Shown here: one piece after another, positions 5,213 through 36,230 of the stretch
Layout: the number at the start of each line of letters is the position of its first letter
How positions within the stretch are numbered: the first letter of the stretch is position 1
Virus record (IMG/VR): IMGVR_UViG_3300025137_005088
Location: 3,066 to 67,065 of that record
From: a virus
Direction: 5' to 3' (one strand)
Length of the DNA stretch: 64,000 bases
Translations under genes and position numbers: made by a program
Notes under the pieces: generated by a model
Database searches by the model: none
What the model saw: only the letters and a program-made list of their open reading frames with translations
Told to the model about the DNA's origin: nothing

Positions 5213-5429
5213 CTAATATCAGTTTTACATCCTTGCCAGGACCTACACGACTGGGCAGGTCTCCGTATGTATTTACATACCATTCAATCACTGCACGGTA
5301 CCATAGTTGACTGTTGTGATGTGCTTGTTTGTTGAATTGATGAATATTGTTGTTGGTTGCCGCCATAGCACTCAATGCCCTAGCACTTTCTATTTGTAGA
5401 TCTCTCAGTTTTAGATCGTCTAAATTCAT
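5205..5429 (-). CDS. hypothetical protein (74 aa)
   Basis: Tiles between neighbours with short overlaps; no recognisable motif. Confidence 0.7.
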   Translation of the reverse strand: MNLDDLKLRDLQIESARALSAMAATNNNIHQFNKQAHHNSQLWYRAVIEWYVNTYGDLPSRVGPGKDVKLILDV

Positions 5430-13308: not shown

Positions 13309-13698
13309 TTATAGTTTACCTTCTTCTCTCATTTTAGCACGAATCTTTGTCGCACTAATGTCGTGTACTGCTTTGCCTAAGTCATGTTCCGTAAATGAAT
13401 ATCCTACACCTCTACCATAACTAATATCAACAATATTAGGTACTAACATAATTTCAAAGTCGTCTCCTATAACATATCCTTTGACATATAAATGTCCTGC
13501 TATATCATTAGTTACTTGATCAAAGTCAAAAGGGTTATCTAAATTACCCATTCCGGCATCAGCACCTTGTACATCTCTGACCATAATCATTACTTGTCCT
13601 GTAATTTCAAGTGCCTTTTCAAAAAGTTTTGAATGCCCTTCGTGCCACGGTTGCCATCTGCCTAACATTTGTACTGTTGGTTTTTTATAATCAAACAT
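13309..13698 (-). CDS. HxGH nucleotidyltransferase (cytidylyltransferase/ATP-sulfurylase-like fold)
   Basis: GRWQPWHEGH, NPF, ISATKIR. Confidence 0.85.
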   Translation of the reverse strand: MFDYKKPTVQMLGRWQPWHEGHSKLFEKALEITGQVMIMVRDVQGADAGMGNLDNPFDFDQVTNDIAGHLYVKGYVIGDDFEIMLVPNIVDISYGRGVGYSFTEHDLGKAVHDISATKIRAKMREEGKL

Positions 13699-14116
13699 TG
13701 TTATTATCCCTGAAACGTTTTAATACTGGTTCTAATTGTTGTGCTGTATCACTAAACCATTCGCTAACATGATAGTCACATTCAGGTGGGTTTTGAAATA
13801 TTTTATTAGTATCCTCAAAACGTCCTTCTTTTATAGTATCCATCCAAACTGTGTAGTCTGGTGCAAATTCTATACGGGCTTGTTCGGTGGGGCACACAAA
13901 GTCAGCAACTGCAATTTTGCCAGCCATCTCTACTCCATCAGCCAAGTGTCGCATACGTTGTGCTTGTCTAATTCTTCCTTCGGGTGTAAAGTCCCAATCG
14001 TCATATTTTTTTCTAACTGTATCGGCGTTTATGTGTACTCCTTCAATTAGTTCTGCAAATGGTTTTGCTAGTGTAGTTTTTCCACTACCCGGCAGACCAA
14101 ATATTAATATTTTCAT
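13691..14116 (-). CDS. adenylyl-sulfate kinase-like P-loop kinase
   Basis: GLPGSGKTTLA, NADTVR, DFTPEGR, DFVCP. Confidence 0.8.
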   Translation of the reverse strand: MKILIFGLPGSGKTTLAKPFAELIEGVHINADTVRKKYDDWDFTPEGRIRQAQRMRHLADGVEMAGKIAVADFVCPTEQARIEFAPDYTVWMDTIKEGRFEDTNKIFQNPPECDYHVSEWFSDTAQQLEPVLKRFRDNNNV

Positions 14117-14627
14117 CTAGTGTATCCTTTATTAATTTATACGGTATTCCAACACTCTCTAATAATCGTATTAGTCTTATCTCACTACCTTTCATTATTG
14201 TGTCCATTGAGTTATTATCTACAAATCTTTCTAAGTAATCTATCTGTTCATTTGTTAAATTCATATCCCATCTTTTTTGTATAGTATCGCCTGTTTTATC
14301 TTTAAACACACCACTGGCCCACAACAAATCATTCTCTACTCCATAGTTGCAGTAGTAGAATTCAAAATTCTCTTGCTCAAGACGCCACAAATGTTCTTTC
14401 CAGTCAAACTTGTAAAAACAAATGTCATTGGCATTTAGACCTTGGACAACAATGTGTTTATACTTGTTTATTATATTGTCTTTATGCAACTGTGTCAAGA
14501 TATCATAATAGTTGATATAGTTTCCGTAATCCAAAGTATATACAGTATATTCATGTTCTTTGGGCAACGTGCTTAGCCATGTTGATCCCGGTTTGCTTTC
14601 ACCGTTGCCAATTACTAACACTTTCAT
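14085..14627 (-). CDS. hypothetical protein, possibly degenerate SGNH-like
   Basis: N-terminal VLVIGNGES and HIVVQ spacing echo the two neighbouring SGNH-like ORFs; no C-terminal catalytic His seen. Confidence 0.5.
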   Translation of the reverse strand: MKVLVIGNGESKPGSTWLSTLPKEHEYTVYTLDYGNYINYYDILTQLHKDNIINKYKHIVVQGLNANDICFYKFDWKEHLWRLEQENFEFYYCNYGVENDLLWASGVFKDKTGDTIQKRWDMNLTNEQIDYLERFVDNNSMDTIMKGSEIRLIRLLESVGIPYKLIKDTLDENINIWSAG

Positions 14628-15469
14628 CTTAGTTTTTCCAATGCTTTGCGTACAGCCTTTCCAACTTTTTTATTACCTGCCTTATTAAAATGTCCGATAA
14701 AAGTATCACTACCGTCTCTGCTTATTTTAGGATCTATAGGAGCAAATATATGATATTTTTTATTAAGGAACAGGTCCATACTACCTTTGCCTACTCCCCA
14801 AGGATAAGGAACATCTAAACGTGTTCCATGTTCAAATTGAGGCGTAACTTGTTCAACTTCATTTACCCATCTAAGGTAATACAATGGTGTCTGAGTTTCT
14901 CTGCATCTTTCGTCTATAAGTGTAGCACAACTTTGTACCACATGCTTGTTAGTCATACCTTGGAACATGTGTTTTCGCCACTCAGTTTCATTATTCATGT
15001 TGCCGCCGAAATCGCCTTTGCCGTTAGCACTGATAAAATTAAAATATTTGGCAGTACCTTTACCCTGATACATATCAATATTTTCTGCTCGCACGTCATA
15101 CTCATGCCAAAATCTGTCACCTATATGTCCTGGTTCATTCCATGTGCATCTAGGTTCATATGTTAATTGTAATAATACATAGTCAAAGTCTTTAAGACGA
15201 TTTTTATTGTAGTAGTGTTCAAGCACTGTAGCATGTTGTACTATGCCTCCGCCACTAACTGTGTAAAGTGTATGATAGTTTTTTGGATCTAAACTTTCAA
15301 CCCAGCCGCCGTTTACATCAAGTGTTTCTCTACCTAATCCGTTGTCTACTTTCTTTGTAGTGCCGTCGGATTGTAGCACATCACTGTACATAATATAGGT
15401 TGGATCGTATGTGTAGCTTCCTGCACTAAAGCTACAACCAAATACCAATACATTTTCATTGTAGTCCAT
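14624..15469 (-). CDS. SGNH/GDSL-fold protein
   Basis: VFGCSFSAG, SGGG, VLLQLTYEPR, GHFNKAGN. Confidence 0.65.
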   Translation of the reverse strand: MDYNENVLVFGCSFSAGSYTYDPTYIMYSDVLQSDGTTKKVDNGLGRETLDVNGGWVESLDPKNYHTLYTVSGGGIVQHATVLEHYYNKNRLKDFDYVLLQLTYEPRCTWNEPGHIGDRFWHEYDVRAENIDMYQGKGTAKYFNFISANGKGDFGGNMNNETEWRKHMFQGMTNKHVVQSCATLIDERCRETQTPLYYLRWVNEVEQVTPQFEHGTRLDVPYPWGVGKGSMDLFLNKKYHIFAPIDPKISRDGSDTFIGHFNKAGNKKVGKAVRKALEKLR

Positions 15470-16115
15470 CGCCTAAACCTTTTTTGATCATCTGTCCTAA
15501 AACAGTGTTTCCTTTTCTTGTAAAGTGTAAATCTGGATTATGTAAATCCTTTTTGTTCCATAGTTGTTCAATTGCGGGCTTTACATCTAAGTACTCAATA
15601 TATTTATATGGGTACTTAACTCCAGTAAAGCTGTAGCTGTATGTGGGCAATCCTGTTTGTTGTGCTAGATGATCCAAGTGACTTGCACATGCTTTAGTTA
15701 GTATATCCCAACTGTTTTCCATTTGCCAAAACCAATCACTCATTCCTTGTTGCCATTTGAAATTATATTGGTTAGCAATTTTGTTTTGCACTTTAGGTAA
15801 TCCTCCTAGTCTATTATGAAATGCATTATCTATTTTCCATGCAAAAACATTGAGTCTAGATGTATAATACTCAAGTTGTTTCTGTATTACAATTCTAGGT
15901 TCCCATGTCTCTTGTATAATTATAGCACTATATTTTTTTATGTCAATTGATTCTAAACATGCACAGTAGCTCATAATGCCACCTCCAGGATGTGCATAAA
16001 CTTGATATGGTTGATCAAGTTCATCATACCAGCAATAGTCTGTGTGTAGTGTTTCTGTTGTGTTGTCGTAGCTGTACCAGCCCATACTAAAACTACAACC
16101 TAATATTAATATCAT
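15456..16115 (-). CDS. SGNH/GDSL-fold protein
   Basis: ILGCSFSMG, PGGG, IIIQETWEPR, DLHFTRKGN; paralogue of 14624..15469. Confidence 0.68.
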   Translation of the reverse strand: MILILGCSFSMGWYSYDNTTETLHTDYCWYDELDQPYQVYAHPGGGIMSYCACLESIDIKKYSAIIIQETWEPRIVIQKQLEYYTSRLNVFAWKIDNAFHNRLGGLPKVQNKIANQYNFKWQQGMSDWFWQMENSWDILTKACASHLDHLAQQTGLPTYSYSFTGVKYPYKYIEYLDVKPAIEQLWNKKDLHNPDLHFTRKGNTVLGQMIKKGLGDGLQ

Positions 16116-17386
16116 GCGTTAGCCTGTTCAACCAGTGTTTTCATATTTCCAAAGTTTACACTTTGATGGTGTGCATTTGCTACTCTAGGATCACGTAGCA
16201 CTTGTAAAAAGTTTTCGTATTCAGGATGATCGGGTTTCCAACAAGCTCTAACTTCAAAGTCAATCATGTGTCCCCAATCAACTATAAGTGTAAATGTTGC
16301 TCTACTATACTTTCCAGGTCCTGACCAACGATCTGTTACCATTTGTATAAAGTCTGGTATCTCTTTATAGTTACATGTTTGTACAACAAAGTTATGACTC
16401 ATTGCTCCGCTGAGTAGATTACTTGTATTGTAACTATTTTTAGTTTTTGTGAAACTAGGTATTTGACTGTAAACATAATCTACATTACTGACTAGTTGAT
16501 CCCAGTGACCTCCTAGTCTTGTTTCTTTTTCATATGTTTCTTTTTTACCAGCATCGAAACTAAAAACAATTTGTTTAATTTGTTTATGAACTTTGCTTAT
16601 ACTATCCCATACCTTTGGAGTAAGCATTACACCGTTTGTTTGAAAATTAAGCCATGTGTTTGGTCTGTCAGTAAGATCCATTTCTTGTAGACGTTCTCTA
16701 AATATCTTACTACCAAAAGGATCACCTCCGCCTGTTATCCATATATCAAATTGATAATCTTTAGGCGCCTTCATTATTTCATCAAATAACTTATCTGTTA
16801 GTGATTTTCTTTGATCATATTTTTCACCCTTAGAATGAATAATTTTACTATTTCTACAGCTAGGACAATATAAGTTACAACTTTCATCTGTACCAACTTG
16901 TATATCGTGTGGCAAGTAATTGGCTTGTGTGCTACGGTTTTTCAATGACTCAACAATAATTGGATCTACATTATATTTTTGAGGATTGTCTATTACATTA
17001 GTTATTAGTGGCAATGCTGTTTCTGCATACTGAATTTTAGGACAAGTGTTGTGTTTGCAATGGGGCCAGTTTGCTCCGTCATACAACTGATTACGAATTT
17101 CTTGTGCTTTAGGTCCATTCCATATCTCTTCCATTGTGCTTACATTTAGATCGCCTATGACTACTGGTAGCCAAAAAGGACAACACATGAAAACTGCACC
17201 CATATTATTAATTTCTGCTCTATTAAAAAAATAACTGCAATATCTTCCGTTAAGATCTTTTTTAGTACCCGCAATAAGACTATCGTCTTGATAGAAACTT
17301 TTAGGTTTCCATCCTTTAGGTTGACCCTTAGGAACAATATCAGGTGTTGAAGACTGCACTGCATCTGCTACAGAGATCGATGTCAC
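16112..17386 (-). CDS. N-terminal twitch-domain radical SAM protein
   Basis: YCSYFF...FMCC...HCKHNTC, then SCNLYCPSC, TGGGDPF, QTNG. Confidence 0.9.
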   Translation of the reverse strand: MTSISVADAVQSSTPDIVPKGQPKGWKPKSFYQDDSLIAGTKKDLNGRYCSYFFNRAEINNMGAVFMCCPFWLPVVIGDLNVSTMEEIWNGPKAQEIRNQLYDGANWPHCKHNTCPKIQYAETALPLITNVIDNPQKYNVDPIIVESLKNRSTQANYLPHDIQVGTDESCNLYCPSCRNSKIIHSKGEKYDQRKSLTDKLFDEIMKAPKDYQFDIWITGGGDPFGSKIFRERLQEMDLTDRPNTWLNFQTNGVMLTPKVWDSISKVHKQIKQIVFSFDAGKKETYEKETRLGGHWDQLVSNVDYVYSQIPSFTKTKNSYNTSNLLSGAMSHNFVVQTCNYKEIPDFIQMVTDRWSGPGKYSRATFTLIVDWGHMIDFEVRACWKPDHPEYENFLQVLRDPRVANAHHQSVNFGNMKTLVEQANA

Positions 17387-18134
17387 AGCGTTTTCCTTTT
17401 GCTAATAATAATTTGTATTTGTTATATTGGCTATTATTCCATACGTCTACAGGACTTGTATTCATATCAACTTTGCCCACAGGATTACGTTTACCAAAGT
17501 CCCACGGACACAAATACATTGTACCGTCAATATATACAAATGCTTCATTTTCTACTTTTTTGCAGGGTAAGTTTAAACTTTCAGTTTGGTCTTCCCATGG
17601 ATGCGAGTACAGTTCAGTAATTTTAGCACATCCTGGTCTTACATTATTCCAATAATCTAAAAACATTTCCTGTTCCGCTTTAGTATCTGGCAAGTTAATC
17701 ATTCTCACCTCACAATCTATCTCAGGGTGATTGTCTACAAATCTTGTAACATTTTCATATACTCTGTCAAAACTTATACCTCTAGTTTCGTCAAAAGTTT
17801 TTTTACTAAAACCATCAACACTAAAACGTATTATATCAACAAACGGAGCAATCTTTCGTTCTGTTTTTATAGTCATAGGTTCGCCGTTACTATTAAGTTC
17901 AACTATAGCAGTAGGATCTTCTTTAATATATCTAGCTATATCAGGCAAACGTGTATCTACTAGAGGTTCGCCTAGTCCAAATGGTCTGTAGACAATACCC
18001 ATATTTCTAGTATCATCTATTATTTTATAGATCAGATCTATATCCATATGCTCTTTAGGGACTAAGTGATTAGGACAAAACCAACAAGTTGCATTACAAA
18101 ATGTTGTTGTTTCTAGTTGTAGGTATTTAAACAT
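17340..18134 (-). CDS. radical SAM protein with C-terminal twitch domain (BtrN-like architecture)
   Basis: CNATCWFC, GLGEP, NSNG, FSVDG; C-terminal PC...YLCPWD...LCSRC. Confidence 0.9.
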   Translation of the reverse strand: MFKYLQLETTTFCNATCWFCPNHLVPKEHMDIDLIYKIIDDTRNMGIVYRPFGLGEPLVDTRLPDIARYIKEDPTAIVELNSNGEPMTIKTERKIAPFVDIIRFSVDGFSKKTFDETRGISFDRVYENVTRFVDNHPEIDCEVRMINLPDTKAEQEMFLDYWNNVRPGCAKITELYSHPWEDQTESLNLPCKKVENEAFVYIDGTMYLCPWDFGKRNPVGKVDMNTSPVDVWNNSQYNKYKLLLAKGKRCDIDLCSRCSAVFNT

Positions 18135-19138
18135 AATAGTTTCTCAAATTGATCCTTCGGTAATGTTGTTAACCTGATAGCTGTACTACTATATTCAGGT
18201 TGCTTACCATACAGTATCTTTTGAGAATCTAATCTATTGATTATATCTTCTGTTGGTTCAAATACAACATGATTAATAGTTGGCTCGCTATATATTTTAC
18301 AATTACTAAAATATTTATGTGCGAACTCAATACCTTCTCTGTTGCGTTGCAAACTCTTATCTACTATATAATGATGTTTATGTAAGTACTCAGCTAATCT
18401 AAGCGTTATACTACTAACACCCATTATGGGTCTAATCTTTGTTATTTGTTCTATAGTATTTTTATGACCTTGAAGTATACCTAATCTAGCACCCGCAAGT
18501 CCCCAACTTTTACTGTAGCTAAATGCCAACAGACAGTTTTCGTATTTGCACAGATCAAAATAACTTTCTGTACAAAAGTGTCTATATGTGTTATCAATAA
18601 GCACAGTCATATTTGGATATGCTCCGCAAATATAATCTATAAATTTTGCACTGTATACTTTACCACTTGGATTATTTGGACTACAAATATAAAATACATT
18701 AGGTCTATGTTTTTCGATAGCTTCTAATATGTCATCTTCATTTTCACTGCATTCAAAAATATTACTTGTAAGATCTACTGCATTAGTCATAGCACCTCTG
18801 TACGTGGGTGTAATAGTTAAAAACTTGCTAGTTTCATCTAGTGTAGCTTCAAATGTTAATCGTATAGCTTCGTCACATCCACAAGTAATTAATATGTTAT
18901 CTAATGTAGTGTTGTAATAATCTGCAAACATTTCATAATAACGATAGTAATCTTCATACTTCATTGAGCTAGACAAATCTAAAAAATGTTTTATAGCTTT
19001 TTGTATATGACCACACAATACTTCGTCTTGATTTTCGTTTCTATCTAAATTAATATACCCAGCTTCAATTTTTTCTACTCTGTTTACTAATCCGCTCCAA
19101 TGTGGTCTATTAAGTTTTTTAATACTATCTCTAATCAT
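18113..19138 (-). CDS. PLP-dependent aminotransferase class I/II (HisC/CobD-like)
   Basis: GCDEAI, CSPNNPSG, IDNTY, SYSKSWGLAGARLG; start moved to ATG 19138 (track gives 19213). Confidence 0.88.
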   Translation of the reverse strand: MIRDSIKKLNRPHWSGLVNRVEKIEAGYINLDRNENQDEVLCGHIQKAIKHFLDLSSSMKYEDYYRYYEMFADYYNTTLDNILITCGCDEAIRLTFEATLDETSKFLTITPTYRGAMTNAVDLTSNIFECSENEDDILEAIEKHRPNVFYICSPNNPSGKVYSAKFIDYICGAYPNMTVLIDNTYRHFCTESYFDLCKYENCLLAFSYSKSWGLAGARLGILQGHKNTIEQITKIRPIMGVSSITLRLAEYLHKHHYIVDKSLQRNREGIEFAHKYFSNCKIYSEPTINHVVFEPTEDIINRLDSQKILYGKQPEYSSTAIRLTTLPKDQFEKLLCLNTYN

Positions 19139-20522
19139 TAAACACAACCTCAGCCTCAGCTTTTTGCTCTTCAGTTCTTTCAAAATAATATTTGTGTTCA
19201 ATGTCTCTACCATAGATAGGATAGTAAAAAATATCTTTGTCTTTAGGTATTATGTTTTGTACTTTTTCAGCAAAAGGTGTATCTTCAAAACTCATACACT
19301 TAACATTGATTTGATCTTGTGGATAGTCTTCAACAAGATTGCTAACCTTTTGCAACACTTTATCTATTGTAAACTCTACATGAAAACTAAATTCCAAGAA
19401 CACACCTTTGTCTAATAGGTCTCTATATTTTTTCTCACCGCCTGTGCCGTTTGTGCTTATTCTAGTTTCATATCCTTTTTCAAACGCTATATCTACCAGG
19501 TCTGCTATCTGTGGATTAAGTGTTGGTTCTCCTCCGGTAATATAAAGTCTTCGACTGGGCTTTTTAGGAACATAAGGATCAACTAAAGTTAATCCATGTG
19601 TAAACTCGTCTGTGGTCATGTGTGGGCTTGCATTATCATGTACACCATTTAGCAACTTGCCTGTGTCATCAAAAGTTGGTCCAGGACAATATGCACAATC
19701 ATAATTGCAACGTAATCCAATATGAAAATGTACTTCAGCCATTGGCATTGCCATACCTCTACCCATTGCTACAATATTATCATCTGCTTTTGAAATTGGT
19801 AATTCTTCTAACTGCCAATGATTAAACTGTTTGTTTGTAACAAAATATTCTAACAATTCTTCTGTTTTTGCTTTTGGTTGTAGCAAGTCAGCATCACAAA
19901 AACATGCTTTGGTTTTACATAAAGTTTCTGTATTAAGTTCTAACTTGTCATAATCTTTCCAATGACCATCGTGACTTGCAATATGTCTCACATTTGCACA
20001 AACACCACTACAAATTTCACCAACTGGATTAATACTAAAGTTGGTTTTGTATATAGGACAATGCCAGCCTCTCATATCCATTTGACGCATTTTTAAGGCT
20101 ACCATGCTTATGCGTTTGTATTCCATTTTGTCTGTTAATACATAAACTGGATTCTCAACATACACAGGTTTTTTATAACCAATACTGCCATCATCTCGTA
20201 TTAGTATGCCAGTATCGTCTGTACCAATCCATACATTGCCATTCATATTTCTTGTTACAAGTTGTTCAACAATTTGTCCATCTTCATAACGGTTAATATT
20301 ACGAGTAACTTTGCTTATGGCATAACCATGTAGTTTGTCGTCTTTATACTGTCCTGCATATGTTTTGTCAATACCTAATCCTTTGCGTTTACCATCAGTA
20401 TATTCAGCAACTGAATCTTCCATCTCGCCTGGACCGGAGTAACCATTTCTCAGCATTTTTTTAGTTACTTTCATGGTACTCGCTTCCTTGTCTAAAAAAA
20501 TCATAATCTGGATATTCTCCAA
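19131..20522 (-). CDS. MORN-like repeat + twitch + radical SAM protein; probable start 20474
   Basis: EYTDGKRKGLG and YAGQYKDDKLHGY; WHC...CKTKACFC; then CNYDCAYC, ITGGEP, STNG, SFHVE. Confidence 0.85.
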   Translation of the reverse strand: MENIQIMIFLDKEASTMKVTKKMLRNGYSGPGEMEDSVAEYTDGKRKGLGIDKTYAGQYKDDKLHGYAISKVTRNINRYEDGQIVEQLVTRNMNGNVWIGTDDTGILIRDDGSIGYKKPVYVENPVYVLTDKMEYKRISMVALKMRQMDMRGWHCPIYKTNFSINPVGEICSGVCANVRHIASHDGHWKDYDKLELNTETLCKTKACFCDADLLQPKAKTEELLEYFVTNKQFNHWQLEELPISKADDNIVAMGRGMAMPMAEVHFHIGLRCNYDCAYCPGPTFDDTGKLLNGVHDNASPHMTTDEFTHGLTLVDPYVPKKPSRRLYITGGEPTLNPQIADLVDIAFEKGYETRISTNGTGGEKKYRDLLDKGVFLEFSFHVEFTIDKVLQKVSNLVEDYPQDQINVKCMSFEDTPFAEKVQNIIPKDKDIFYYPIYGRDIEHKYYFERTEEQKAEAEVVFND

Positions 20523-21126
20523 CTTGAGACATTATAAAATCTTGTTTTCTAAAAACTAAATCAACTTGATGTAAGGCACCATGTTCGTAATCCATGTTTA
20601 CAATATCCCACAGTTTAAATCCGATGTGTTCAATATCAGATATAAGCTCACCCATATATGGTAGTTGTGCTTCTACTATCATTAAATCAAACTGACAACA
20701 GGTAGCAACACCACCTCGTATTATGTCCAGTTCGTATCCGTCAACATCAATTTTAACCAGACTGTTCCCGCCACGCCATCTAGGAGTTATATCTAAACTA
20801 TCCAGTGTTGTTATTTTACTTGTATACCCAAAGGCTTTACCTTCATGTACTAAATTTAAATCTATATTTTCTTTTATTTGATTTCCTAGTGCTACATTTA
20901 TAAGTTCGTAGCTGTATTTTTTATAGTTTTCGTGTATCTCATCATTATGATTTACGTCAGGTTCGATTAATACATGATGTGCTTTTGGAAAACTAAATTG
21001 TAACCAAGGAGTGCCTGTGTGTACTCCAATGTCTAGTATATATTTTATGTCATACCCGCTTTGTTTTAAAAATTGTAAGCTATCTTTTATTCTGGGAATA
21101 CGATGTTTAATCATTGCCAACCTCAT
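20461..21126 (-). CDS. FkbM-family methyltransferase
   Basis: ILDIGVHTG, LIEP, NVALG, VKIDVDGYE, QVDLVF. Confidence 0.88.
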   Translation of the reverse strand: MRLAMIKHRIPRIKDSLQFLKQSGYDIKYILDIGVHTGTPWLQFSFPKAHHVLIEPDVNHNDEIHENYKKYSYELINVALGNQIKENIDLNLVHEGKAFGYTSKITTLDSLDITPRWRGGNSLVKIDVDGYELDIIRGGVATCCQFDLMIVEAQLPYMGELISDIEHIGFKLWDIVNMDYEHGALHQVDLVFRKQDFIMSQVGEYPDYDFFRQGSEYHESN

Positions 21127-22540
21127 ATAGTCCTAATTCGCCAGCTTCGAAGTTTTTAGGCTGTGGCGACCATACTCCTATTAGTGCGTTTTTATATTCC
21201 CAATAGCTTTGTGGACGCATATCCCACACTCGCCAATTACCGTTTCTAGCAATACCCAACTGTGTTTGATCTAATGTTTCATGAGACAATATGTCAGGAG
21301 TGCAACACATTTCTTCACTAACTAAAATACCTCTATCTGGGTGCATTAGATTCTTCACAGCATGTAGTTTTTTCCATGCAGTAGTTCCGTGTGTTGCATC
21401 ATGTATTGCAAAATCTACTGGACCATACTTGTCCATTAATTGTTTACAAGTGTCAGGTTTATAGCAATCTACACCAAGCTCTAGTTTTACTCCTTCAATT
21501 TTGCTAGCAATTTTTAGATCTTCTACTTGCTGTCGCCCTAGTGCATCTTCAGGTATACTGGTTGGTGTTAGCTTATCAACTCCAATTATAGTTGCTTGAG
21601 GGAATAGTTTTTGTAAAAATTGTAAGTGTTCTCCTCTACCAATACCAAGTTCAACAATAGTATAATTTTCATCTAATCCAAATATTTTATTTGTCCTTTT
21701 GAGATGTTTAACTATTAAATCATATATTGCACAGTATCTTCTTTTCATTCTACGTTCAACACTTCTAGTAGGATTGTCTATCATATCAAATGCAATGCTA
21801 CTGTATGTTTCAAAGTCTACCGGAGTACCTAATAAGAAATTGCTTTCGTAATCACCTTGTCCTAGCTGTTTTACCTGAGTCCTTCCGTGTGGTCTGCCAC
21901 TTAAAAAATGTCCACTTGCAGTTCTAATCCAATCACCATAGTGTGTTGTATCTCTTTTTCCTTGTACAAAGTTATATGGCGGCACATGTTTAGTTTCAGT
22001 AACAAAGTTTTTTTCTTCATGCCTAGTTACATTAAACCCTTGCTCGTCTTTATAAGTTGTTGTTTTACCGCCTACTGCATTTACTATTGTACCATCTTCT
22101 AGTGTTCTACACCCTAGTCCATCTATGTTTGCTTCTTCTAATCCACAAGGCACATCATTTAGATACCATTGTCCTTCTCTTGGTTCGGCAATCATTCCAT
22201 CTACACGACCTATAAATTTTACGCCTTTATGTACAGTTTCAAGTATGCCATATCCACAAGGTTTATTATTACTGAACTGTCCATAATACCTAGCACCAGT
22301 GGGCCATACATGCACACCAAACCCTTGTTTTTTATCCAACAAGTTTTGCCCTATATAAGTTTCGCCATGATCCCATTCTTTAGCGGACATGCCGGTAACT
22401 TTATTGTAATCAAACTCAGCCGCACACTTTCCTGTTAATGGCAGATTATAAAATCCTAAGCCATGTTCAAACTGTGTTCCGTGTCGGTCTTGTACGACTT
22501 GTCCAATATATGTTCTGGGTGGCTTATAGTAGTCCCTCAT
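21107..22540 (-). CDS. MORN-repeat + class I SAM methyltransferase fusion
   Basis: YIGQNLLDKKQGFGVHVWPTGARYYGQFSNNKPCGYG; C-terminal VELGIGRG, IIGVD, DFAIHDATH. Confidence 0.8.
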   Translation of the reverse strand: MRDYYKPPRTYIGQVVQDRHGTQFEHGLGFYNLPLTGKCAAEFDYNKVTGMSAKEWDHGETYIGQNLLDKKQGFGVHVWPTGARYYGQFSNNKPCGYGILETVHKGVKFIGRVDGMIAEPREGQWYLNDVPCGLEEANIDGLGCRTLEDGTIVNAVGGKTTTYKDEQGFNVTRHEEKNFVTETKHVPPYNFVQGKRDTTHYGDWIRTASGHFLSGRPHGRTQVKQLGQGDYESNFLLGTPVDFETYSSIAFDMIDNPTRSVERRMKRRYCAIYDLIVKHLKRTNKIFGLDENYTIVELGIGRGEHLQFLQKLFPQATIIGVDKLTPTSIPEDALGRQQVEDLKIASKIEGVKLELGVDCYKPDTCKQLMDKYGPVDFAIHDATHGTTAWKKLHAVKNLMHPDRGILVSEEMCCTPDILSHETLDQTQLGIARNGNWRVWDMRPQSYWEYKNALIGVWSPQPKNFEAGELGLYEVGND

Positions 22541-23283
22541 GCAAACTTTTCCTTGCAGTAATCGTAGAACTCTATATCCTTTGTTGTTGTTTCTTTCACT
22601 AGCTGTTTCTCGATGTTTGTTAGTTCCTCATAATTTAGATAGTCAATACCATGTTGACTTAAATTAAACTTTGTATTATGCTCATAGCTAATACTTAGAT
22701 TGGGTTTTATATCATATTGCTTGGCTACTTTGTCAAACTGTTTTAAGTAATTATCCTCCATAAAAAACATGTGATCTAGTTTTTGTATATTCTCAATAGC
22801 TTGATCATATAGTTCTTGTTCATAATCGGTATCAATTTTCCTTCCGTAATCAATACGCAAACACTGTTCATTACTAAACTTCTGATATTGTGCATACACA
22901 GGAGTTGGATGTAATCTACTACAATTAATAATCCAAGTTGTAAAGTCAATATCAGTAATACAACTATGCACATTAATCATTTCTAATTTGAAATAATTAT
23001 ATGCACTCATGATCCTTTTGATAGGATCTCTAAGTATAGTAGCATACTTTACAGAATTTTGCAAGTGTTTATCTAAGTCAAAGCTAACACCATGTCCAAT
23101 TATCAAACGAACATTTTCATCTTTACAGTTTTCTATTAGAACTTTATGTTGATTGGATTGTTTAAAGTTAAACACCAACTCATGTGGAACACGCTGATAG
23201 GCAAATGTACTATTTGTTCTATACCTGTCTACTAGTGTGGTTCCTCCATTTTTAAGTATGTGAAATACTGCTAGTGTTTCCAT
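22537..23283 (-). CDS. sulfotransferase (family 2-like)
   Basis: 5'-PSB FHILKNGGTT; 3'-PB LRDPIKRIMSAYNY; C-terminal DIEFY. Confidence 0.82.
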   Translation of the reverse strand: METLAVFHILKNGGTTLVDRYRTNSTFAYQRVPHELVFNFKQSNQHKVLIENCKDENVRLIIGHGVSFDLDKHLQNSVKYATILRDPIKRIMSAYNYFKLEMINVHSCITDIDFTTWIINCSRLHPTPVYAQYQKFSNEQCLRIDYGRKIDTDYEQELYDQAIENIQKLDHMFFMEDNYLKQFDKVAKQYDIKPNLSISYEHNTKFNLSQHGIDYLNYEELTNIEKQLVKETTTKDIEFYDYCKEKFA

Positions 23284-24104
23284 TTATCTTCACACCTCTT
23301 ATAAAATTCTATGTCTGCTTGCAAATCTAATTCAACAAGATATTTTAAGTCTTCGTCTAATTCATGATACTTAACATACGCTAAATTGTGTTTGCTTAAA
23401 TCATGTGTTGTTTCATTTGTATAGACCATTTCTTTCCATGCATTTAAGTCTAGTCTATAGTGTGCTAGTAAATCATCAAACCTAGTAACAATATCGTCTT
23501 CTTGAAAAAATACATGATCCATTTTGTTCATTACTCGTTCCCAAGTGATATTCATATTGTGTGTTTCTATTAGATTTTTTTCTTTTATCTTTTGTTGTAT
23601 TTTTGTATTGTCAACATAGCTTGTGTCTTTTTCAACGTCCCATGTAAGCACTGTGTTTAGATACATATCGTTCATTGTAAACATGTTTTTCAATGTTCCA
23701 TCATTAAACCAATCGGTATGATCTACATGTTGATACAAATAGTATTCGTACTGCTTTGTAACTGGCATCGGACGTAGCACATCTTTGTTTATGAACCACA
23801 TATAAAAATCAATATCAGGACTGTCTGGATTCATATAAAGCATTTGTGTACGATAAAAATTATACATGCTCATTATTCTACTGATAGGATCTCTAACACA
23901 AGTAATGTAAATTAAGTTGCTAGCGAGCTGTTCTTCGTAGTATCCTATTTGTACACTGTGTCCGAAAACAACTTTGGATTTGTCTGTAACTGTATCACCA
24001 AGGTCAGTGATTCTGAAACTATCGTTACTATTCCTGTATCTTTCTTTAAGTGTTGTTCCGCCTGTTTTAGGACAATGAGGAAAGATGATAATATTACTTG
24101 TCAT
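23271..24104 (-). CDS. sulfotransferase (family 2-like)
   Basis: HCPKTGGTT; VRDPISRIMSMYNF; DIEFY; paralogue of 22537..23283. Confidence 0.85.
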   Translation of the reverse strand: MTSNIIIFPHCPKTGGTTLKERYRNSNDSFRITDLGDTVTDKSKVVFGHSVQIGYYEEQLASNLIYITCVRDPISRIMSMYNFYRTQMLYMNPDSPDIDFYMWFINKDVLRPMPVTKQYEYYLYQHVDHTDWFNDGTLKNMFTMNDMYLNTVLTWDVEKDTSYVDNTKIQQKIKEKNLIETHNMNITWERVMNKMDHVFFQEDDIVTRFDDLLAHYRLDLNAWKEMVYTNETTHDLSKHNLAYVKYHELDEDLKYLVELDLQADIEFYKRCEDKWKH

Positions 24105-24654
24105 TGTACGTTCCAGTCTGAATTTTTCTTTTACACTTTCTTAAAAAATTGTAATCTATGCTGTTGGCTACTTGATAGTCTCCTCGTAGTGCAGTATCTA
24201 GTTCATTGCTTTCAAATCTAGTGTTAAAATTTATAGTTTTACAATCTGTTTTTAAATACTTGCTAAGTTTCTCTGCAAGAAAGTCTAAAGTAAAATCTTT
24301 ATGATTCATAACTTGTTCTTTTGGGTAAAGCGATCCTTTAGTAGGGTTCCATGTGATATAATTAATAAACCCTATAAATTTGTAATTTTTTTCTACTAGT
24401 TCTTTAGTTTCGCTAGTGTGTATATCTAAACTTTTGGTAATTATATTTCTTTCTTCAAACACTAACTCTTCAAAAGTTTTTCCTTTTGAATCACCATCAC
24501 TATCTAAAAAATCCATTGTTTGTTCTATAGCTCTGTCAAATGGATCTCTTAATATTAAAATGTCAGCATTCTCTGTTACTAGCTCTAAGTTGTATATGTT
24601 AGCAATCTGTTCATGCCAGCAGTTTGGAATATAGTGTAATTTATTCATACTCAT
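24094..24654 (-). CDS. divergent sulfotransferase-like protein
   Basis: ILRDPFDRAIE and ANSIDY resemble the neighbours; the 5'-PSB lysine motif is absent. Confidence 0.5.
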   Translation of the reverse strand: MSMNKLHYIPNCWHEQIANIYNLELVTENADILILRDPFDRAIEQTMDFLDSDGDSKGKTFEELVFEERNIITKSLDIHTSETKELVEKNYKFIGFINYITWNPTKGSLYPKEQVMNHKDFTLDFLAEKLSKYLKTDCKTINFNTRFESNELDTALRGDYQVANSIDYNFLRKCKRKIQTGTYNDK

Positions 24655-25688
24655 ACAGCTACCGCTTCTTTAAACTTGCTTAAAATCAAATCAGTATTGC
24701 AAAAACAACTTGTCTTTTCACATGTGTATGCATAAGCAGGCATTCTAAAAGTCTTAAGGTTCTCTATATGTCCAAGCCACCTTATAGTTCCATTCTCATC
24801 TTTACCTTCAGGTAAACATGCGGCTCCACTAATATATCCAAGTTCATTAACAAACAAACCATCTATACCAGCATTACACTTCCATCCTCTGAATTGATTT
24901 TTCTTTGCACTGTACAGTCCATTTGTATCTAATATAGTTTCTTCTTTGTATCTACCATCAGCCATTTTGTAAACCGCTGTAGCATCAATCGGCATACTGT
25001 ATTGTTCGAAGCTAACATCTGGATTAGCAGTTTTTCTTTTGAATGCCAATTTCTCATCAATCTTTTCTTGTTGTTCTTTTGTATATACATGTGGTCTTTC
25101 TTTTTCAGTTAACCAATCTGCAACAATAGGAACTTTCTCAACAAAAAACTGTCCCATGTATGGTTGTGTCTTTAGCATTTCAAAAAACTCAATACACTTA
25201 TCAAAGTATACTTGTTGTGGATGCATCATAATACGCACTCCTAACAGTGTATAAGGCCATAGTGTATCAATAACTTTAACACAATGTTTTAAACTTGTTT
25301 TTTCACTATGAAAGCTAAAACTTATCCAACGAAAACTTTCCTTGTGTTTTTCCCAAAACTTAAGACTTTTACTTCCGTTTGTAGTCAATCCGACCTGCAC
25401 ATTTTCTTCTACTAACCAAGTTAAGAAATCATCAAACACAGGTAATGCGGTAGGCTCGCCTCCTGTAAAACTTATTACAAGTTCTTCATCCTCATTGAGA
25501 TAGCTTTTAATCTTAATTACAAATTCTTTGTATACTTCCAAGTCAAAAGCAGGACTACTACCTTCGTAGTTGTAAGGGTGGCAGTATGCACAACTGAAGT
25601 TACACTTGTTGGTCAAGTTCCAGTTTATATGAAAGTATTTGTTATACTTTTGCTTAATCTCTATAAGCTCTGCACTATCCGACAGCAT
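24651..25688 (-). CDS. radical SAM protein with C-terminal twitch/SPASM-like domain
   Basis: CNFSCAYC, FTGGEP, TTNGS, SFHSE; WKCNAG...AC...CEKTSCFC; same architecture as 466..1440. Confidence 0.9.
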   Translation of the reverse strand: MLSDSAELIEIKQKYNKYFHINWNLTNKCNFSCAYCHPYNYEGSSPAFDLEVYKEFVIKIKSYLNEDEELVISFTGGEPTALPVFDDFLTWLVEENVQVGLTTNGSKSLKFWEKHKESFRWISFSFHSEKTSLKHCVKVIDTLWPYTLLGVRIMMHPQQVYFDKCIEFFEMLKTQPYMGQFFVEKVPIVADWLTEKERPHVYTKEQQEKIDEKLAFKRKTANPDVSFEQYSMPIDATAVYKMADGRYKEETILDTNGLYSAKKNQFRGWKCNAGIDGLFVNELGYISGAACLPEGKDENGTIRWLGHIENLKTFRMPAYAYTCEKTSCFCNTDLILSKFKEAVAV

Positions 25689-26691
25689 CTACTGTTTTCC
25701 CCTCAGTAAGTTTATAACCAATTGCCTGATTAAATTCTGGATCTGGTACTACGTCAAAACTTCCAACTTTCAGCATTCCCCAAGTTAGCATATCAAATCT
25801 ATTTCGAGTATCAGTCTTTTTAATCTTATAACCGCCCCAGTAGTTGTCTAAACTGTGATTTAAATGATCTAATGCTTCTTCATGTGTTCTCCGATCACCA
25901 CACCAAAACATTAGTTCACCTGCATAACAACATTGTTGTTCTACTAAATCAAAACTACTACTTGTCATTTTTATTGCATTGTACTCATTATCGTCATACA
26001 TTTCAATCATTATGTTATCGTAGTCATACCCAATTTGTGTAGGATATAAAAATATTTCACCTGGATTTCGTTCCATACTAAAACGATCAACCCATTCATC
26101 ATCTAAGTAATGAAACTGATGATTAAACTTTAATCCAAAGTTTTGTAAGTTTGTTTCCTGTGTAACAGTTGTGGTTACATCTCTTAATACTTTAAGTGAA
26201 TGAAAAATATGAACTAACTTTTCAATATGTCTTGTGATTCCTTGGTCATTAAGTACGCGATAGATTAGTATACATTGTGTTTGCATTGGATTAATAATGT
26301 CTTGATGTACTATTAGTCCCCATTGGTGATCTATTTTTCCTGCATCCATTTTATACCAATCTTGTAATGGGACGATCTTTTCTAATGTATTTTCAATTTG
26401 AGTAAATGCCTGTCCATTACTCATTACTGTATGTCCTAAAATTTCACTCAATGGAATGTTAGCAGTGTTATATCCATCGGCAATTTTATTCCATTCTTCT
26501 ATTTTATCATTTAGAATAGGAACGATTTGATATAATCTTTCTAATGCGTGGTGTTTATGATACACATTCCAATGCGTTACTTCCGGAACTCCAACAATAT
26601 CCAACCCTAAATTAAACCAGTCTGCAAATATATCGCATTTGATTAGTTGGTTTTCTTTTTTATCGTTTTGCAATTTAAATTCAAACTTCAT
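25675..26691 (-). CDS. hypothetical protein
   Basis: Long ORF; start moved to ATG 26691 (MKFEFK) to avoid a 128-nt overlap; no family recognised. Confidence 0.7.
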   Translation of the reverse strand: MKFEFKLQNDKKENQLIKCDIFADWFNLGLDIVGVPEVTHWNVYHKHHALERLYQIVPILNDKIEEWNKIADGYNTANIPLSEILGHTVMSNGQAFTQIENTLEKIVPLQDWYKMDAGKIDHQWGLIVHQDIINPMQTQCILIYRVLNDQGITRHIEKLVHIFHSLKVLRDVTTTVTQETNLQNFGLKFNHQFHYLDDEWVDRFSMERNPGEIFLYPTQIGYDYDNIMIEMYDDNEYNAIKMTSSSFDLVEQQCCYAGELMFWCGDRRTHEEALDHLNHSLDNYWGGYKIKKTDTRNRFDMLTWGMLKVGSFDVVPDPEFNQAIGYKLTEGKTVDAVG

Positions 26692-27979
26692 ACTTGTTCC
26701 ATATTTTATAAAGCTCTGCAAAGTCAGAATTAAAATCTGTCTTACGCATTTTATCAATACTGCGAATGTACTTGTTGAGGGGAAGCCACTTGTCGCTCCA
26801 GTCCTCACTGTTCATAAAGTTTGTCATGTGCTTTAATTCTTGCACTTTATTCTTCTCTGGATACTTCAACATGAAGTTATCAATTTTTTCTGTAACAATC
26901 TGTTTCATTTCTTTAGGTAATACTTTAGCACACATGTACTGTGGATAGTGTAACACACCAGGATGAAACATTCCTTGGTGATCATGTATTCCAATTTTTT
27001 TATAGTTTTGGTCAAACAAAAACTGTGCAAAGTCTGGCAAATACCAAATGTTTAATGCACTTACAGTACATAATACTTTACCAACAATATGGTCAGCCGC
27101 GTTTTCTACTTTGTCTAGTGTTTCGTGTACAGTTTGCCAATTAGTTGGATAGCGTAACCATTTGTTCATTTCGCCTATTCCGTCTATACTAAGCATAAGT
27201 TCTACAAACTTAAAGTGACCCCACAGTTCTAATATATCATCTGGCATAATAGTACCGTTGGTATGATAGCGTAGTTCTATATGTTCAGCATGTCCACTTT
27301 CGACACATTTCTTTAAGAAACGTTTATGGTTCTTTAAGTATAAAGGCTCGCCTCCTGCAAATATAAAGTGACGCATGCCAGCTAACAAAGGATCTATCTC
27401 TTGTTCCCAAAACTCGTCATCAGCGGCCCAGTCATATTTGTTGTTGCAATGGTCTTGTATTTTCCAATCCCAGTCACCTTTTACTTCAGGATTGTCGTGA
27501 CTTAGGTCTCTGATCTTTTCTGCATCTTTGACCCACTTACTTGAATCAGTTGGTCTACACATTACACACTGTACGTTACAAGTATTACCTAAACGTAAGT
27601 CTAATGTAATCACATCTTGGTCTAAGTATCCGTCTTCTTTAGTGCTTGTAATTAGTTCGTCAATATATTCTCTGCCAAGTTTTTTAGCCCATAAATTGTT
27701 TTCATTCATTCTGTGACTGCGTATGCCAGCCGCTTCTTCTTTCCAACAATGCTTACAAGCAGGCAATGCTTTACCAGCTATCATATCTTTTCTAGCATTT
27801 TTGAAATAGTAACTATTCCATACTGCATTTATATCAGCATTGTTTAAGTTAATACGTTTATCTTGTGTAGGCTGAGCTAGACAGCAAAGCAAGGCTGTGC
27901 CGTCTGTATAAGTTGCCATGTGCATCCATGGAAGAATACAAAATTTCTTTCCATAGTCTTCTAAAAAATCTTGTGCCAT
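26681..27979 (-). CDS. N-terminal twitch-domain radical SAM protein
   Basis: FCILPWMH...LLCC...ACKHCW, GNTCNVQCVMC, FAGGEP, HTNGT. Confidence 0.92.
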   Translation of the reverse strand: MAQDFLEDYGKKFCILPWMHMATYTDGTALLCCLAQPTQDKRINLNNADINAVWNSYYFKNARKDMIAGKALPACKHCWKEEAAGIRSHRMNENNLWAKKLGREYIDELITSTKEDGYLDQDVITLDLRLGNTCNVQCVMCRPTDSSKWVKDAEKIRDLSHDNPEVKGDWDWKIQDHCNNKYDWAADDEFWEQEIDPLLAGMRHFIFAGGEPLYLKNHKRFLKKCVESGHAEHIELRYHTNGTIMPDDILELWGHFKFVELMLSIDGIGEMNKWLRYPTNWQTVHETLDKVENAADHIVGKVLCTVSALNIWYLPDFAQFLFDQNYKKIGIHDHQGMFHPGVLHYPQYMCAKVLPKEMKQIVTEKIDNFMLKYPEKNKVQELKHMTNFMNSEDWSDKWLPLNKYIRSIDKMRKTDFNSDFAELYKIWNKYEV

Positions 27980-29331
27980 TATTCTACCAACTTTCTAATA
28001 TTTTCATACAACTCGTCATCGACAATACTAAAGTTGGTATTACGTTGCTTGTCCCATACCTGTGTCATCTTTACAAAGTCTTGTAACTGTTCTTTCCAGT
28101 TATCTAACTGCGGTTGTTCTAAATATCCTACAATACCATCTACGCTATTTTTTATCAACCAATTCTTCTCATATAATATATTACACTTTTCTTTGAATTC
28201 GAGCAATCTATTTTTTGCATTGACTCTCATTTCAACAGGTAAATTTCTCACATCTAAATACGGAGGATGTGTATTAATTAATATGTCAACGCCAATACTT
28301 TTCCATTCTAGTTCTGGTTTTCCTGCATAAAATTCTTCACCTAACTCGTGTGCAAGCCATAGTATTTCATGTATTCTGTTCACATTATAAATTTGTAACA
28401 CAGGACTTATATTGCTAGAAACGTTTGGTAAACTTAATATGCTTCTATAGTTTCTCAGTATAACGTCCCAACTCTTGGTGCCTCGTATGAATTCATTTAC
28501 AACACCTATGCCATCTAAACTAGCGTTGATGTCCACGCTTTCGAACTTACCAATACTATCTAAAAACTTTTGGTTTGCATTTGTACAGTTAGTATTCATA
28601 AAAACATTAATGTGCTTGCTGTGACCTTGTTCGGCGGCATAATTCAAAAACTGCATATTATTTTGAATCATAGTAGGCTCGCCTCCGGTCATGTAAACTT
28701 TTCTTAGTTTAGGCATCCAATCGTAAATATCTTTCCAAAAATCATCAGCATCGAACTTTTCTCTATATTCTTTACTATTGATCCAATCTGGACGTTTTCC
28801 ATATGTCTTTTCTTGTATACGAGTATAATCTTCTTCAACATCGGTGAGCTTTACATCTTCTTTAGCAATAGTACTACTGTTAAAACTGTTGCACATTCTA
28901 CAACTAAGATTACACAAATTACCTAAACGCAAGTCTAAATAAAGGGGGTCGTGTTCTGGTAACTCAAAGTCATTGTTATAGCTTGCTTCAATGCGTTCAT
29001 GAATAGCGTCTTCGCCTATACGGCGTTCCCACTCCTCATTGTGCATTTGTCTAAAACTTTTTTTACCTACTTCTTCTTGTAAGTAACAGTGTTTACAACT
29101 ACTAATTTCTTCACCTTGGATCATTGACATGCGTATATCTTTCATGTCTTTTCCGTTCCAGGCTTCTTTTAGTGTTGTACTATTGATGTCCAGTATTTTT
29201 CCATCTTCGCTACGTAGGACACTGGGTTTGGCAATACAACAGAAGTCAATGCTTCCGCTGGTATTGACCATCATGCTCAACCATGGGTAAACACAGAATG
29301 TCTCTCCATACAATTCATCCCAATCTGCCAT
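27979..29331 (-). CDS. N-terminal twitch-domain radical SAM protein
   Basis: FCVYPW...DFCC...SCKHCY, GNLCNLSCRMC, TGGEP, NTNCT. Confidence 0.92.
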   Translation of the reverse strand: MADWDELYGETFCVYPWLSMMVNTSGSIDFCCIAKPSVLRSEDGKILDINSTTLKEAWNGKDMKDIRMSMIQGEEISSCKHCYLQEEVGKKSFRQMHNEEWERRIGEDAIHERIEASYNNDFELPEHDPLYLDLRLGNLCNLSCRMCNSFNSSTIAKEDVKLTDVEEDYTRIQEKTYGKRPDWINSKEYREKFDADDFWKDIYDWMPKLRKVYMTGGEPTMIQNNMQFLNYAAEQGHSKHINVFMNTNCTNANQKFLDSIGKFESVDINASLDGIGVVNEFIRGTKSWDVILRNYRSILSLPNVSSNISPVLQIYNVNRIHEILWLAHELGEEFYAGKPELEWKSIGVDILINTHPPYLDVRNLPVEMRVNAKNRLLEFKEKCNILYEKNWLIKNSVDGIVGYLEQPQLDNWKEQLQDFVKMTQVWDKQRNTNFSIVDDELYENIRKLVE

Positions 29332-36222: not shown

Positions 36223-36230
36223 TATTTATA
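36223..36230 (-). promoter_or_regulatory. T4-type late promoter
   Basis: Exact TATAAATA overlapping the stop codon of the 3804-aa gene. Confidence 0.7.

Follow-up and report, generated by a model that had tools for sequence, protein, structure and literature searches.

MORN repeats on a methyltransferase and on a radical SAM enzyme of a viral tailoring cassette: a candidate docking pair

The window studied here, a stretch of 64,000 nucleotides from a virus (IMG/VR record IMGVR_UViG_3300025137_005088, positions 3,066 to 67,065), carries on its minus strand two genes in which MORN repeats are joined to enzymes. One codes for a methyltransferase with a long N-terminal MORN array (the MORN-methyltransferase), the other for a radical S-adenosylmethionine (SAM) enzyme that opens with a small MORN-like sheet (the module); a gene for an FkbM-family methyltransferase lies between the two. 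The explanation that we favour, with moderate confidence, is that the two MORN parts form a docking pair that couples tailoring enzymes and are not two copies of one substrate reader. The folds, the domain architectures, the strict co-occurrence of the genes and the purifying selection on the module were computed directly; the binding, its purpose and the substrate are inferred. The argument turns on the following features.

21107..22540, minus strand: MORN-methyltransferase, 477 aa (open reading frame, ORF; model pLDDT 87.9)
22145..22528, minus strand: first MORN block of the MORN-methyltransferase, residues 5-132, the predicted docking face (structural match to MORN2/MORN4 and Pfam MORN)
21818..22066, minus strand: second beta-hairpin (MORN-like) block of the same protein, residues 159-241 (strands in the model)
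21110..21805, minus strand: its class I SAM methyltransferase domain, residues 246-477, metal-dependent O-methyltransferase-like (invariant motifs and structural matches)
20461..21126, minus strand: FkbM-family methyltransferase without a MORN part, between the two MORN genes (Pfam Methyltransf_21, 39.1 bits against 22.7)
19131..20474, minus strand: radical SAM enzyme, 447 aa from the ATG at 20474 (start site, Pfam Radical_SAM, CxxxCxxC)
20154..20474, minus strand: portable MORN-like module, residues 1-107 of the radical SAM enzyme (first ~105 aa; hairpins 14-92 in the model)
19785..20084, minus strand: Cys-rich middle domain, residues 131-230 (invariant C139, C159, C186, C191 and C193)
19215..19775, minus strand: radical SAM core, residues 234-420 (Pfam; Foldseek and structural matches)

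The two MORN arrays and their predicted contact

By sequence profile and predicted structure, the N-terminal half of the MORN-methyltransferase is a true MORN array in two blocks. The N-terminus scores above the Pfam MORN threshold (PF02493, 24.4 bits, cut-off 22.5), and a precomputed PF02493 match is found in 22 of the 25 full-length relatives of the protein (36-90% identity). A profile of 26 members of the family retrieves MORN1 chains at E 5e-18, with four stretches matched, together with 20 more MORN-protein chains at E<=1e-3; positions 203-245 of the profile are aligned to MORN1 repeats. The AlphaFold2 model (pLDDT 87.9, pTM 0.78) places beta-hairpin arrays at residues 10-132 and 159-241 and, behind them, a Rossmann domain (246-477). 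It matches MORN1 by Foldseek (E 2.9e-11), and its residues 5-130 superpose by VIA-align on MORN2 (9ijj_3Q; Z 14.5, root-mean-square deviation (rmsd) 2.6 A, 122 aa) and on MORN4 (Z 12.6, rmsd 2.3 A, 114 aa).

The true start of the radical SAM enzyme, and with it of the module, is probably 20474 and not 20522. The listed ORF, 19131-20522, opens at a TTG; the likelier start is the ATG at 20474, preceded by GGAAGCGAG, because the starts of relatives and of free-standing modules coincide with it: 12 of 14 relatives start at or within a Met-Lys/Arg-Val/Ile-Thr-Lys N-terminus, the other two having a 10-residue extension, and the stand-alone modules share the start position. From this start the module appears, on profile and model evidence, as a divergent MORN-like sheet of small size, with four hairpins. 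The window copy stays under the Pfam MORN cut-off of 22.5 (14.8 bits, E 0.027), as against 13 of 15 family members that match at E<=0.1, the best at 3.3e-5. When a library of 1.84 billion proteins was searched with a profile of the N-terminal 130 aa, bona fide, canonical MORN proteins came up at E 1e-5 to 7.5e-4; the profile of the full-length family has no MORN match among PDB sequences at E<=1. In the model of the enzyme (pLDDT 81.7) the hairpins span residues 14-92, the module being all beta save for one short N-terminal helix, and residues 11-107 match MORN2 (Z 9.5, rmsd 2.8 A, 97 aa), FAP227 (Z 9.0), MORN4 (Z 8.7) and MORN1 (Z 8.7), values of Z (8.7-9.5) that lie within the range reachable between unrelated repeat folds. 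Compared with each other, the two N-termini align by BLASTP at E 0.006 over 51 aa and by hhalign with a probability of 57% over 35 columns, and neither N-terminal profile finds anything significant among the other 302 stop-to-stop ORFs of at least 50 aa in the window (best E 0.11). The preliminary description of this DNA had placed MORN-like units at the N-termini of 21107..22540 and 19131..20522, on either side of an FkbM methyltransferase, and had proposed the folding of both as MORN sheets as a test. Each of these points is borne out, the folding by prediction, the methyltransferase array being canonical and the radical SAM copy divergent, and both predicted models match MORN2.

The module probably docks on the first MORN block of the methyltransferase, as judged from the modelling of the pair. 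Co-folding of the methyltransferase and the module, with separate own alignments, gave an ipSAE of 0.84 in three of three runs, the best of three controls scoring 0.00. The mark thus reached is attained by 58 of 80 solved complexes and by 2 of 110 mismatched pairs, a calibration that is rough, since own alignments were used. The runs agree on at least 99% of contacts, with a pLDDT of at least 86 for the partner, and the predicted interface joins residues 10-129 of the methyltransferase, within the first MORN block, to residues 1-100 of the module. The residues in contact are mostly small or aliphatic and conservatively substituted, as fits two single-layer sheets that shield each other's hydrophobic faces. 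MORN repeats are documented as modules of protein-protein interaction and dimerisation (PMC7725318). If the pair forms as modelled, the module would lay the hydrophobic face of its sheet onto the first MORN block; through docking, the methyltransferase would be linked to a second tailoring enzyme or would gain a small obligate subunit, and the docked enzymes would work as one complex on one substrate, most likely a sugar hydroxyl of a glycoconjugate made by the surrounding gene island.

A portable module in a conserved cassette

A profile of the module, searched against the same library of 1.84 billion proteins, gave 15 matches at E<=1e-3. Two of these are radical SAM fusions (P0039 and P0046) and four are free small proteins of 90-109 aa (P0043, P0047, P0048 and P0052). 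One, of 345 aa (P0049), is a fusion of the module to FkbM: identity is 36% between its residues 1-107 and the module (E 2e-14) and 38% between its residues 120-305 and the FkbM protein of the window (E 2e-36), in agreement with Pfam. Two chimeric-looking fragments (P0044 and P0045), in which a perfect module N-terminus is followed by unrelated low-complexity sequence, are probably frameshifted or chimeric assemblies. Among the six further matches, three are canonical MORN proteins by Pfam. In one viral locus (L007) the module is an ORF of 112 aa between the MORN-methyltransferase and an aminotransferase, without a radical SAM domain, and one cluster of free modules is found on 8 contigs, the gene call of one member being marked as complete. 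To judge from these sequences, the module is an autonomous, exchangeable unit that occurs on a radical SAM enzyme, on FkbM or as a free protein of ~100 aa.

Searches along other routes were made as well. A word-index search with the MORN half of the methyltransferase returned 11 members of the same family and no other architecture. Scans of viral contigs led, with the module alignment, back to the 7 contigs of the viral loci described below and no extra loci and, with P0049, to no locus. P0049 comes from a contig of 5093 bp, the length also of the contig of a MORN-methyltransferase (P0023), which merely hints that the two genes may be neighbours. In a viral structure library, no entry extends over module and radical SAM core together; the library does hold a 100-aa protein of an uncultured phage that matches the module alone (rank 27, TM-score 0.73 on the target) and giant-virus MORN proteins that match at E 5e-4 to 3e-3.

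The company kept by the MORN-methyltransferase is constant. A metagenome scan with this family gave 36 loci, of which 5 stop before the downstream gene and 31 are informative; the methyltransferases of these loci are 35-97% identical to the window copy, and some loci are identical copies, so that the distinct methyltransferase-module pairs number 26, the window included. Downstream of the MORN-methyltransferase, all 31 informative loci have a gene that bears the module. It takes four forms: FkbM and then the module fused to a radical SAM enzyme (16 loci); the same fusion without FkbM (5); a free-standing module of 102-113 aa (8); and a short form of 82-90 aa in which the first ~41 residues only are retained (2). 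The seven viral loci divide into five with FkbM and the module-radical SAM fusion, one with the fusion and one with a free module. For the free module, dN/dS (the ratio of nonsynonymous to synonymous substitution rates) is 0.06-0.46 in the 19 computable of 21 pairs, which denotes purifying selection and hence a working gene and no remnant; we had considered the free module as the decaying remnant of a deleted radical SAM gene, a view rejected by these values and by its recurrence. Since the module persists under purifying selection without a catalytic domain, aiming the radical SAM enzyme is not its only job.

The conserved core of the cassette comprises two sulfotransferase-like genes, the MORN-methyltransferase, the module, a HisC-like aminotransferase and a small radical SAM/SPASM enzyme. 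FkbM and the radical SAM body joined to the module are accessory parts. The remaining members of the core lie in the window as follows.

22537..24104, minus strand: two sulfotransferase-like genes, immediately upstream of the MORN-methyltransferase (Pfam; upstream in 7 of 7 viral loci)
18113..19138, minus strand: HisC-like class I/II aminotransferase (Pfam Aminotran_1_2, E 1.3e-26; after the module gene wherever DNA is present)
17340..18134, minus strand: small radical SAM/SPASM enzyme, the conserved end of the cassette (Pfam Radical_SAM and SPASM; 75-92% identical in 7 of 7 viral loci)

The match of 23271-24104 to Sulfotransfer_2 is marginal (22.3 bits, cut-off 22), and those of 22537-23283 to sulfotransferases are all below the Pfam thresholds. 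The aminotransferase scores 138.5 bits against TIGR01141 (hisC), under the cut-off of 276.55. Its start is probably the ATG at 19138 and not 19213: this ATG gives a protein of 341 aa, as in the orthologues of two other viral loci (L006 and L007), and overlaps the stop of the radical SAM gene by 8 nt.

Catalytic domains, candidate substrate and competing explanations

The catalytic domain of the MORN-methyltransferase has the strand and helix order of a class I methyltransferase, and hundreds of class I chains match it at Z>8. Motif I (E297-x-G299-x-G301-x-G303) and the acidic D322 are invariant, as are H380-D381-A382-x-H384 and E409-E410, which in the model stand at the ends of strand 4 (377-381) and strand 5 (405-409). 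Its best structural matches are the O-methyltransferases MycE (Z 13.8) and SpnK (Z 13.3), both over ~169 aa at rmsd 3.4-3.6 A. A domain-only profile gives a weak alignment with MycE (E 0.0094) that spans motif I and sets D381 and H384 on the D and H of the MycE motif DDGSH. These have chain indices 295 and 298 and would equal Asp275 and His278 if the deposited chain carries a 20-residue tag. Asp275 and His278 are described as conserved active-site residues of the MycE family of sugar O-methyltransferases, in which Asp275 and Asp304 are the Mg ligands of MycE and the sugar diol coordinates Mg (PMC9275233). Enzymes of the MycE/SpnK/TylF type, which methylate sugars already on a scaffold (PMC9275233), resemble the phage domain in catalytic fold, motif I, a weakly aligned D..H and an acidic pair 28-29 residues further on; they differ in that the similarity to MycE is marginal at the sequence level and in that the N-terminal auxiliary domain of the phage protein is a MORN array and not that of MycE.

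On these comparisons, the methyl group is most likely transferred to a glycoconjugate that the surrounding island makes, at a hydroxyl of its sugar; we favour a sugar hydroxyl, probably on a carrier, because of the MycE/SpnK-like domain together with nearby nucleoside diphosphate (NDP)-sugar and sulfation genes. A sugar attached to a virion or host protein is a possible substrate. Two observations tell against so specific an assignment: the scores of MycE and SpnK lie within ~1 Z of those of the O-methyltransferases TrmR, which acts on tRNA, and of the COMT type, which acts on catechol, both likewise metal-dependent; and the protein matches none of the Pfam methyltransferase families at cut-off. 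By their features, stand-alone phage Methyltransf_24 proteins of ~200 aa look similar, which we take as a lead only. The preliminary description had argued for protein rather than free-sugar substrates; the nearness of the domain to MycE and SpnK, the placing, if weak, of D381 and H384 on the D and H of MycE and the sugar genes of the island point the other way.

In the radical SAM enzyme, the core matches Pfam Radical_SAM (44.7 bits, cut-off 29.5) and contains the invariant C256-x3-C260-x2-C263. Foldseek aligns it with viperin (E 1.5e-4), and QueE, NifB and EpeE match at Z ~10; the twitch enzyme SpeY matches residues 143-416 of the protein (Z 10.4). Matches to viperin, QueE, SpeY, NifB and EpeE at such similar levels are uninformative on function. 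The Cys-rich middle domain, which resembles the C-terminus of another radical SAM enzyme of the island (24651-25688; E 3e-4), is likely, from its sequence, to be an auxiliary Fe-S domain of the twitch/SPASM kind placed ahead of the core. The enzyme falls outside the family NF033640 (N_Twi_rSAM), with 39 bits against a threshold of 170 (E 5.3e-10 over the core). In both, a Cys-rich domain precedes the radical SAM core; the MORN-like module lies outside the model of that family.

Several points weigh against a docking pair. The co-fold score expresses the confidence of a model, and its controls were unrelated non-MORN proteins, so that any two MORN sheets might stack in this manner. Interface columns are only slightly better conserved than the other columns, with a mean entropy of 1.03 as compared with 1.12 for the methyltransferase and of 1.08 as compared with 1.30 for the module. 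Apparent paired changes, such as Y86 to V in the methyltransferase with V73 to I in the module, track the phylogeny and represent no more than one or two events; covariation at the predicted contacts, being confounded in this way, was dropped as support. In the fused form, the hydrophobic face of the module may already be buried against the radical SAM body. Gene adjacency is to be expected of any partners in an operon and is by itself no proof of contact. Finally, the published MORN1 dimers are tail-to-tail (PMC7725318) and the predicted pair is face-to-face, which would therefore be a new mode.

The preliminary description had proposed instead a shared recognition module: each MORN array would separately read the same peptide or protein, in the manner of a recognition element (RRE) for ribosomally synthesised and post-translationally modified peptides (RiPPs), and would so steer both enzymes to a common protein substrate. 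There is something to be said for this. MORN grooves take extended peptides, as described for junctophilin and CaV1.1 (PMC8916002), and a MORN4-Myo3a complex has been solved, according to the title of the structure; radical SAM/SPASM enzymes, among which peptide maturases are common, are numerous in the island, and the island lies directly behind baseplate genes and a 3804-aa ORF, a possible target. The module is, moreover, portable and accessory, and is found both discrete and fused, as RREs are; this part of the proposal stands. Several findings tell against the remainder, and we consider a shared reader unlikely. The arrays are unlike in size and sequence (~240 aa and canonical against ~105 aa and divergent, E 0.006), and co-folding favours contact between them; the module fold is all beta and not the PqqD-like winged helix. 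The module is retained without a catalytic partner, which only a version with a trans-acting adaptor would explain. The methyltransferase domain is like sugar O-methyltransferases and unlike protein methyltransferases, with NDP-sugar genes near, and no precursor peptide was identified.

Another explanation dispenses with a specific partnership: the arrays would be general oligomerisation or stability domains, for example for homodimerisation, the predicted heterocomplex an artefact of sheet stacking, and the free module a protein with an unrelated role in the cassette. MORN1 proteins do homodimerise (PMC7725318), and both the absence of other MORN proteins from the co-fold controls and the unremarkable conservation of the interface leave room for this explanation. 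It is, however, hard to reconcile with an adjacency kept in 31 of 31 loci among methyltransferases just 35-97% identical to the window copy, with the purifying selection on the free module and with a co-fold that scores 0.84 against 0.00 in the controls, with at least 99% agreement on contacts, and we think it quite improbable.

A third possibility, in which we place little credence, is that the enzymes are anchored through their MORN arrays to the inner membrane of the host, where lipid-linked glycan intermediates are made. MORN repeats are named for, and often presumed to have, a lipid-binding activity, and glycan-type neighbouring genes would suit lipid-linked substrates; TbMORN1 bound individual phospholipids but no membranes or vesicles, in vivo or in vitro, in the work reported in PMC7725318. 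Anchoring at a membrane would also leave unexplained both the constant companionship of a small MORN-like unit and the methyltransferase and the co-folding of the two units. Lastly, it is scarcely credible that the N-terminus of the radical SAM enzyme is no MORN sheet and that its Gly-rich hairpins resemble one by chance: the sub-threshold window copy, the full-length profile that finds no MORN chain and a Z of 9.5 that repeat folds attain without kinship would allow it, but the Pfam matches in 13 of 15 relatives, the route from the N-terminal profile to canonical MORN proteins and the agreement of four independent MORN structures (rmsd 2.7-3.1 A over 90-100 aa) argue for kinship.

The surrounding island, known systems and significance

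The viral record from which the window comes measures 67 kb and has an estimated completeness of 19% (CheckV); in the window, all genes from position 1 to ~58200 are on the minus strand. Genes downstream code for T4-type baseplate proteins (gp6-like, gp25-like and gp5-like), a late sigma factor and SbcCD-like nucleases. The sigma factor (58298-59176, plus strand) has its nearest relatives in PA5oct-like and other jumbo phages (285-470 kb; 46.8% identity). This kinship, together with a completeness of 19% for 67 kb, suggests an uncultured marine jumbo myovirus. Among GenBank phages, the cassette was found in no cultured phage, although such searches may miss records near the window's own genome: megablast of the region and tblastn of the MORN-methyltransferase gave no match, tblastn of the radical SAM enzyme gave two matches, to the core only (~29% identity), and the conserved radical SAM/SPASM enzyme gave three remote ones.

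The cassette belongs to a tailoring island of ~36 kb behind the baseplate genes; the 3804-aa ORF (36226-47640, minus strand) lies between the gene of a 1191-aa gp6-like baseplate wedge protein and the island. At least 11 island proteins match radical SAM, one of them (2708-4114) under the Pfam Radical_SAM cut-off, and in several the SPASM/twitch domain precedes the core. Five paralogues on the minus strand (16112-17386, 26681-27979, 27979-29331, 2708-4114 and 1440-2711) reverse the usual order in this way, with SPASM/twitch N-terminal to the core; the copy at 16112-17386, the only one scanned against NCBIfam, scores 70.8 bits with NF033640 (N-terminal twitch), well under the cut-off of 170. 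The island further contains sulfotransferase-like, adenosine 5'-phosphosulfate (APS)-kinase-like, cytidylyltransferase-like, carbamoyltransferase, glycosyltransferase and NDP-sugar epimerase/dehydratase genes. Two of its features are given here with their coordinates.

8987-11326, minus strand: GFO/IDH/MocA oxidoreductase fused to a DesII-like radical SAM enzyme, 779 aa (TIGR04426, E 3.7e-103, 345.8 bits against a cut-off of 450)
13691-14116, minus strand: APS-kinase-like gene of the island

The fusion gene is conserved across several related loci, where it closes the cassette. The APS-kinase-like gene and three consecutive small genes on the minus strand (22537-24654), of which 24094-24654 has no Pfam match, hint at a phage-encoded sulfation dependent on 3'-phosphoadenosine-5'-phosphosulfate (PAPS). 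Two neighbouring paralogues (14624-15469 and 15456-16115, minus strand), also without a Pfam match, both open with Gly-Cys-Ser-Phe-Ser, which we presume to recall SGNH/GDSL hydrolases. The genes 6441-7145 and 29334-30311 (minus strand), neither with a Pfam match, appear to be distant paralogues, and 6441-7145 aligns at the position of 29334-30311 in related loci (32-35% identity). A gap of 213 nt between two island genes (5213-5425, minus strand) holds only short open frames.

That MORN repeats serve as interaction modules is already known. The phage arrays share with MORN1, MORN2, MORN4, the junctophilins and RSPH1 the Gly-rich hairpin repeat of 23 aa, the single antiparallel sheet and the use of the sheet as a surface for interaction, MORN1 dimerising and junctophilin having a peptide groove (PMC7725318, PMC8916002); they differ in being joined, in a bacteriophage, to enzymes (a class I methyltransferase and a radical SAM enzyme) and in the predicted face-to-face contact of a long array with a short one. 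A MORN-MORN heterodimer of RSP1 and RSP10 was considered as a precedent and dropped, since passages of PMC10774353 do not bear it out.

Other systems offer partial parallels. The phage methyltransferase has in common with SETD7 a MORN array N-terminal to a SAM-dependent methyltransferase. SETD7 (SET7/9) is a protein lysine methyltransferase in which N-terminal MORN repeats precede a SET domain that acts on lysine, whereas the phage protein has a Rossmann-fold, metal-dependent O-methyltransferase-like domain and no Pfam match to SET; the catalytic parts are not homologous, and SETD7, which the preliminary description had cited, is therefore silent on the substrate of the phage enzyme. RREs (PqqD-like) are fused to radical SAM/SPASM maturases or discrete, and are also found on other enzymes of a pathway. 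Like them, the module is a small accessory domain that stands N-terminal to a radical SAM enzyme and is found separately or on another enzyme class as well, but an RRE is a winged helix-turn-helix, with three helices and a three-stranded sheet, and the module is an all-beta hairpin sheet whose predicted partner is the MORN array of an enzyme; the PqqD family had no match in the Pfam scans. By way of functional analogy only, with no relation in sequence or fold, a small partner that stabilises an enzyme or orders a pathway is also seen in Trm112, a small activator subunit of class I methyltransferases, and in the docking domains that order the enzymes of polyketide synthase (PKS) and non-ribosomal peptide synthetase (NRPS) pathways.

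Our literature search found no paper that ties MORN repeats to radical SAM enzymes or to phage tailoring enzymes. Three elements are new, in that none was found in print: the joining of MORN arrays, in a phage, with a class I O-methyltransferase and with a radical SAM enzyme; the small unit that is swapped or free; and the predicted sheet-on-sheet MORN pair. We would go further tentatively, and with some doubt, to a MORN-MORN 'docking code' in marine jumbo phages, in which an exchangeable adaptor, carrying a radical SAM enzyme, FkbM or nothing, would dock on the long array of a core sugar O-methyltransferase and so build a modular tailoring complex, and in which the sandwich of two sheets may hold a glycosylated protein or peptide.

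MORN repeats are widespread and poorly understood, and have been studied mostly in eukaryotic scaffolds. The cassette offers a compact case, with a MORN array on an enzyme and a likely partner of ~100 aa that exists naturally as a free protein and in more than one kind of fusion. If the two bind, they would be a simple system in which to see how MORN sheets recognise their partners, and they would represent a novel kind of docking device that sets tailoring enzymes in order. A docking code, if true, would be the beta-sheet counterpart of RREs and of PKS docking domains and the first enzymatic role of MORN repeats in a virus of bacteria. The cassette also gives a handle on the product of a large, unexplored island of radical SAM, sulfotransferase and sugar genes in uncultured marine jumbo phages.

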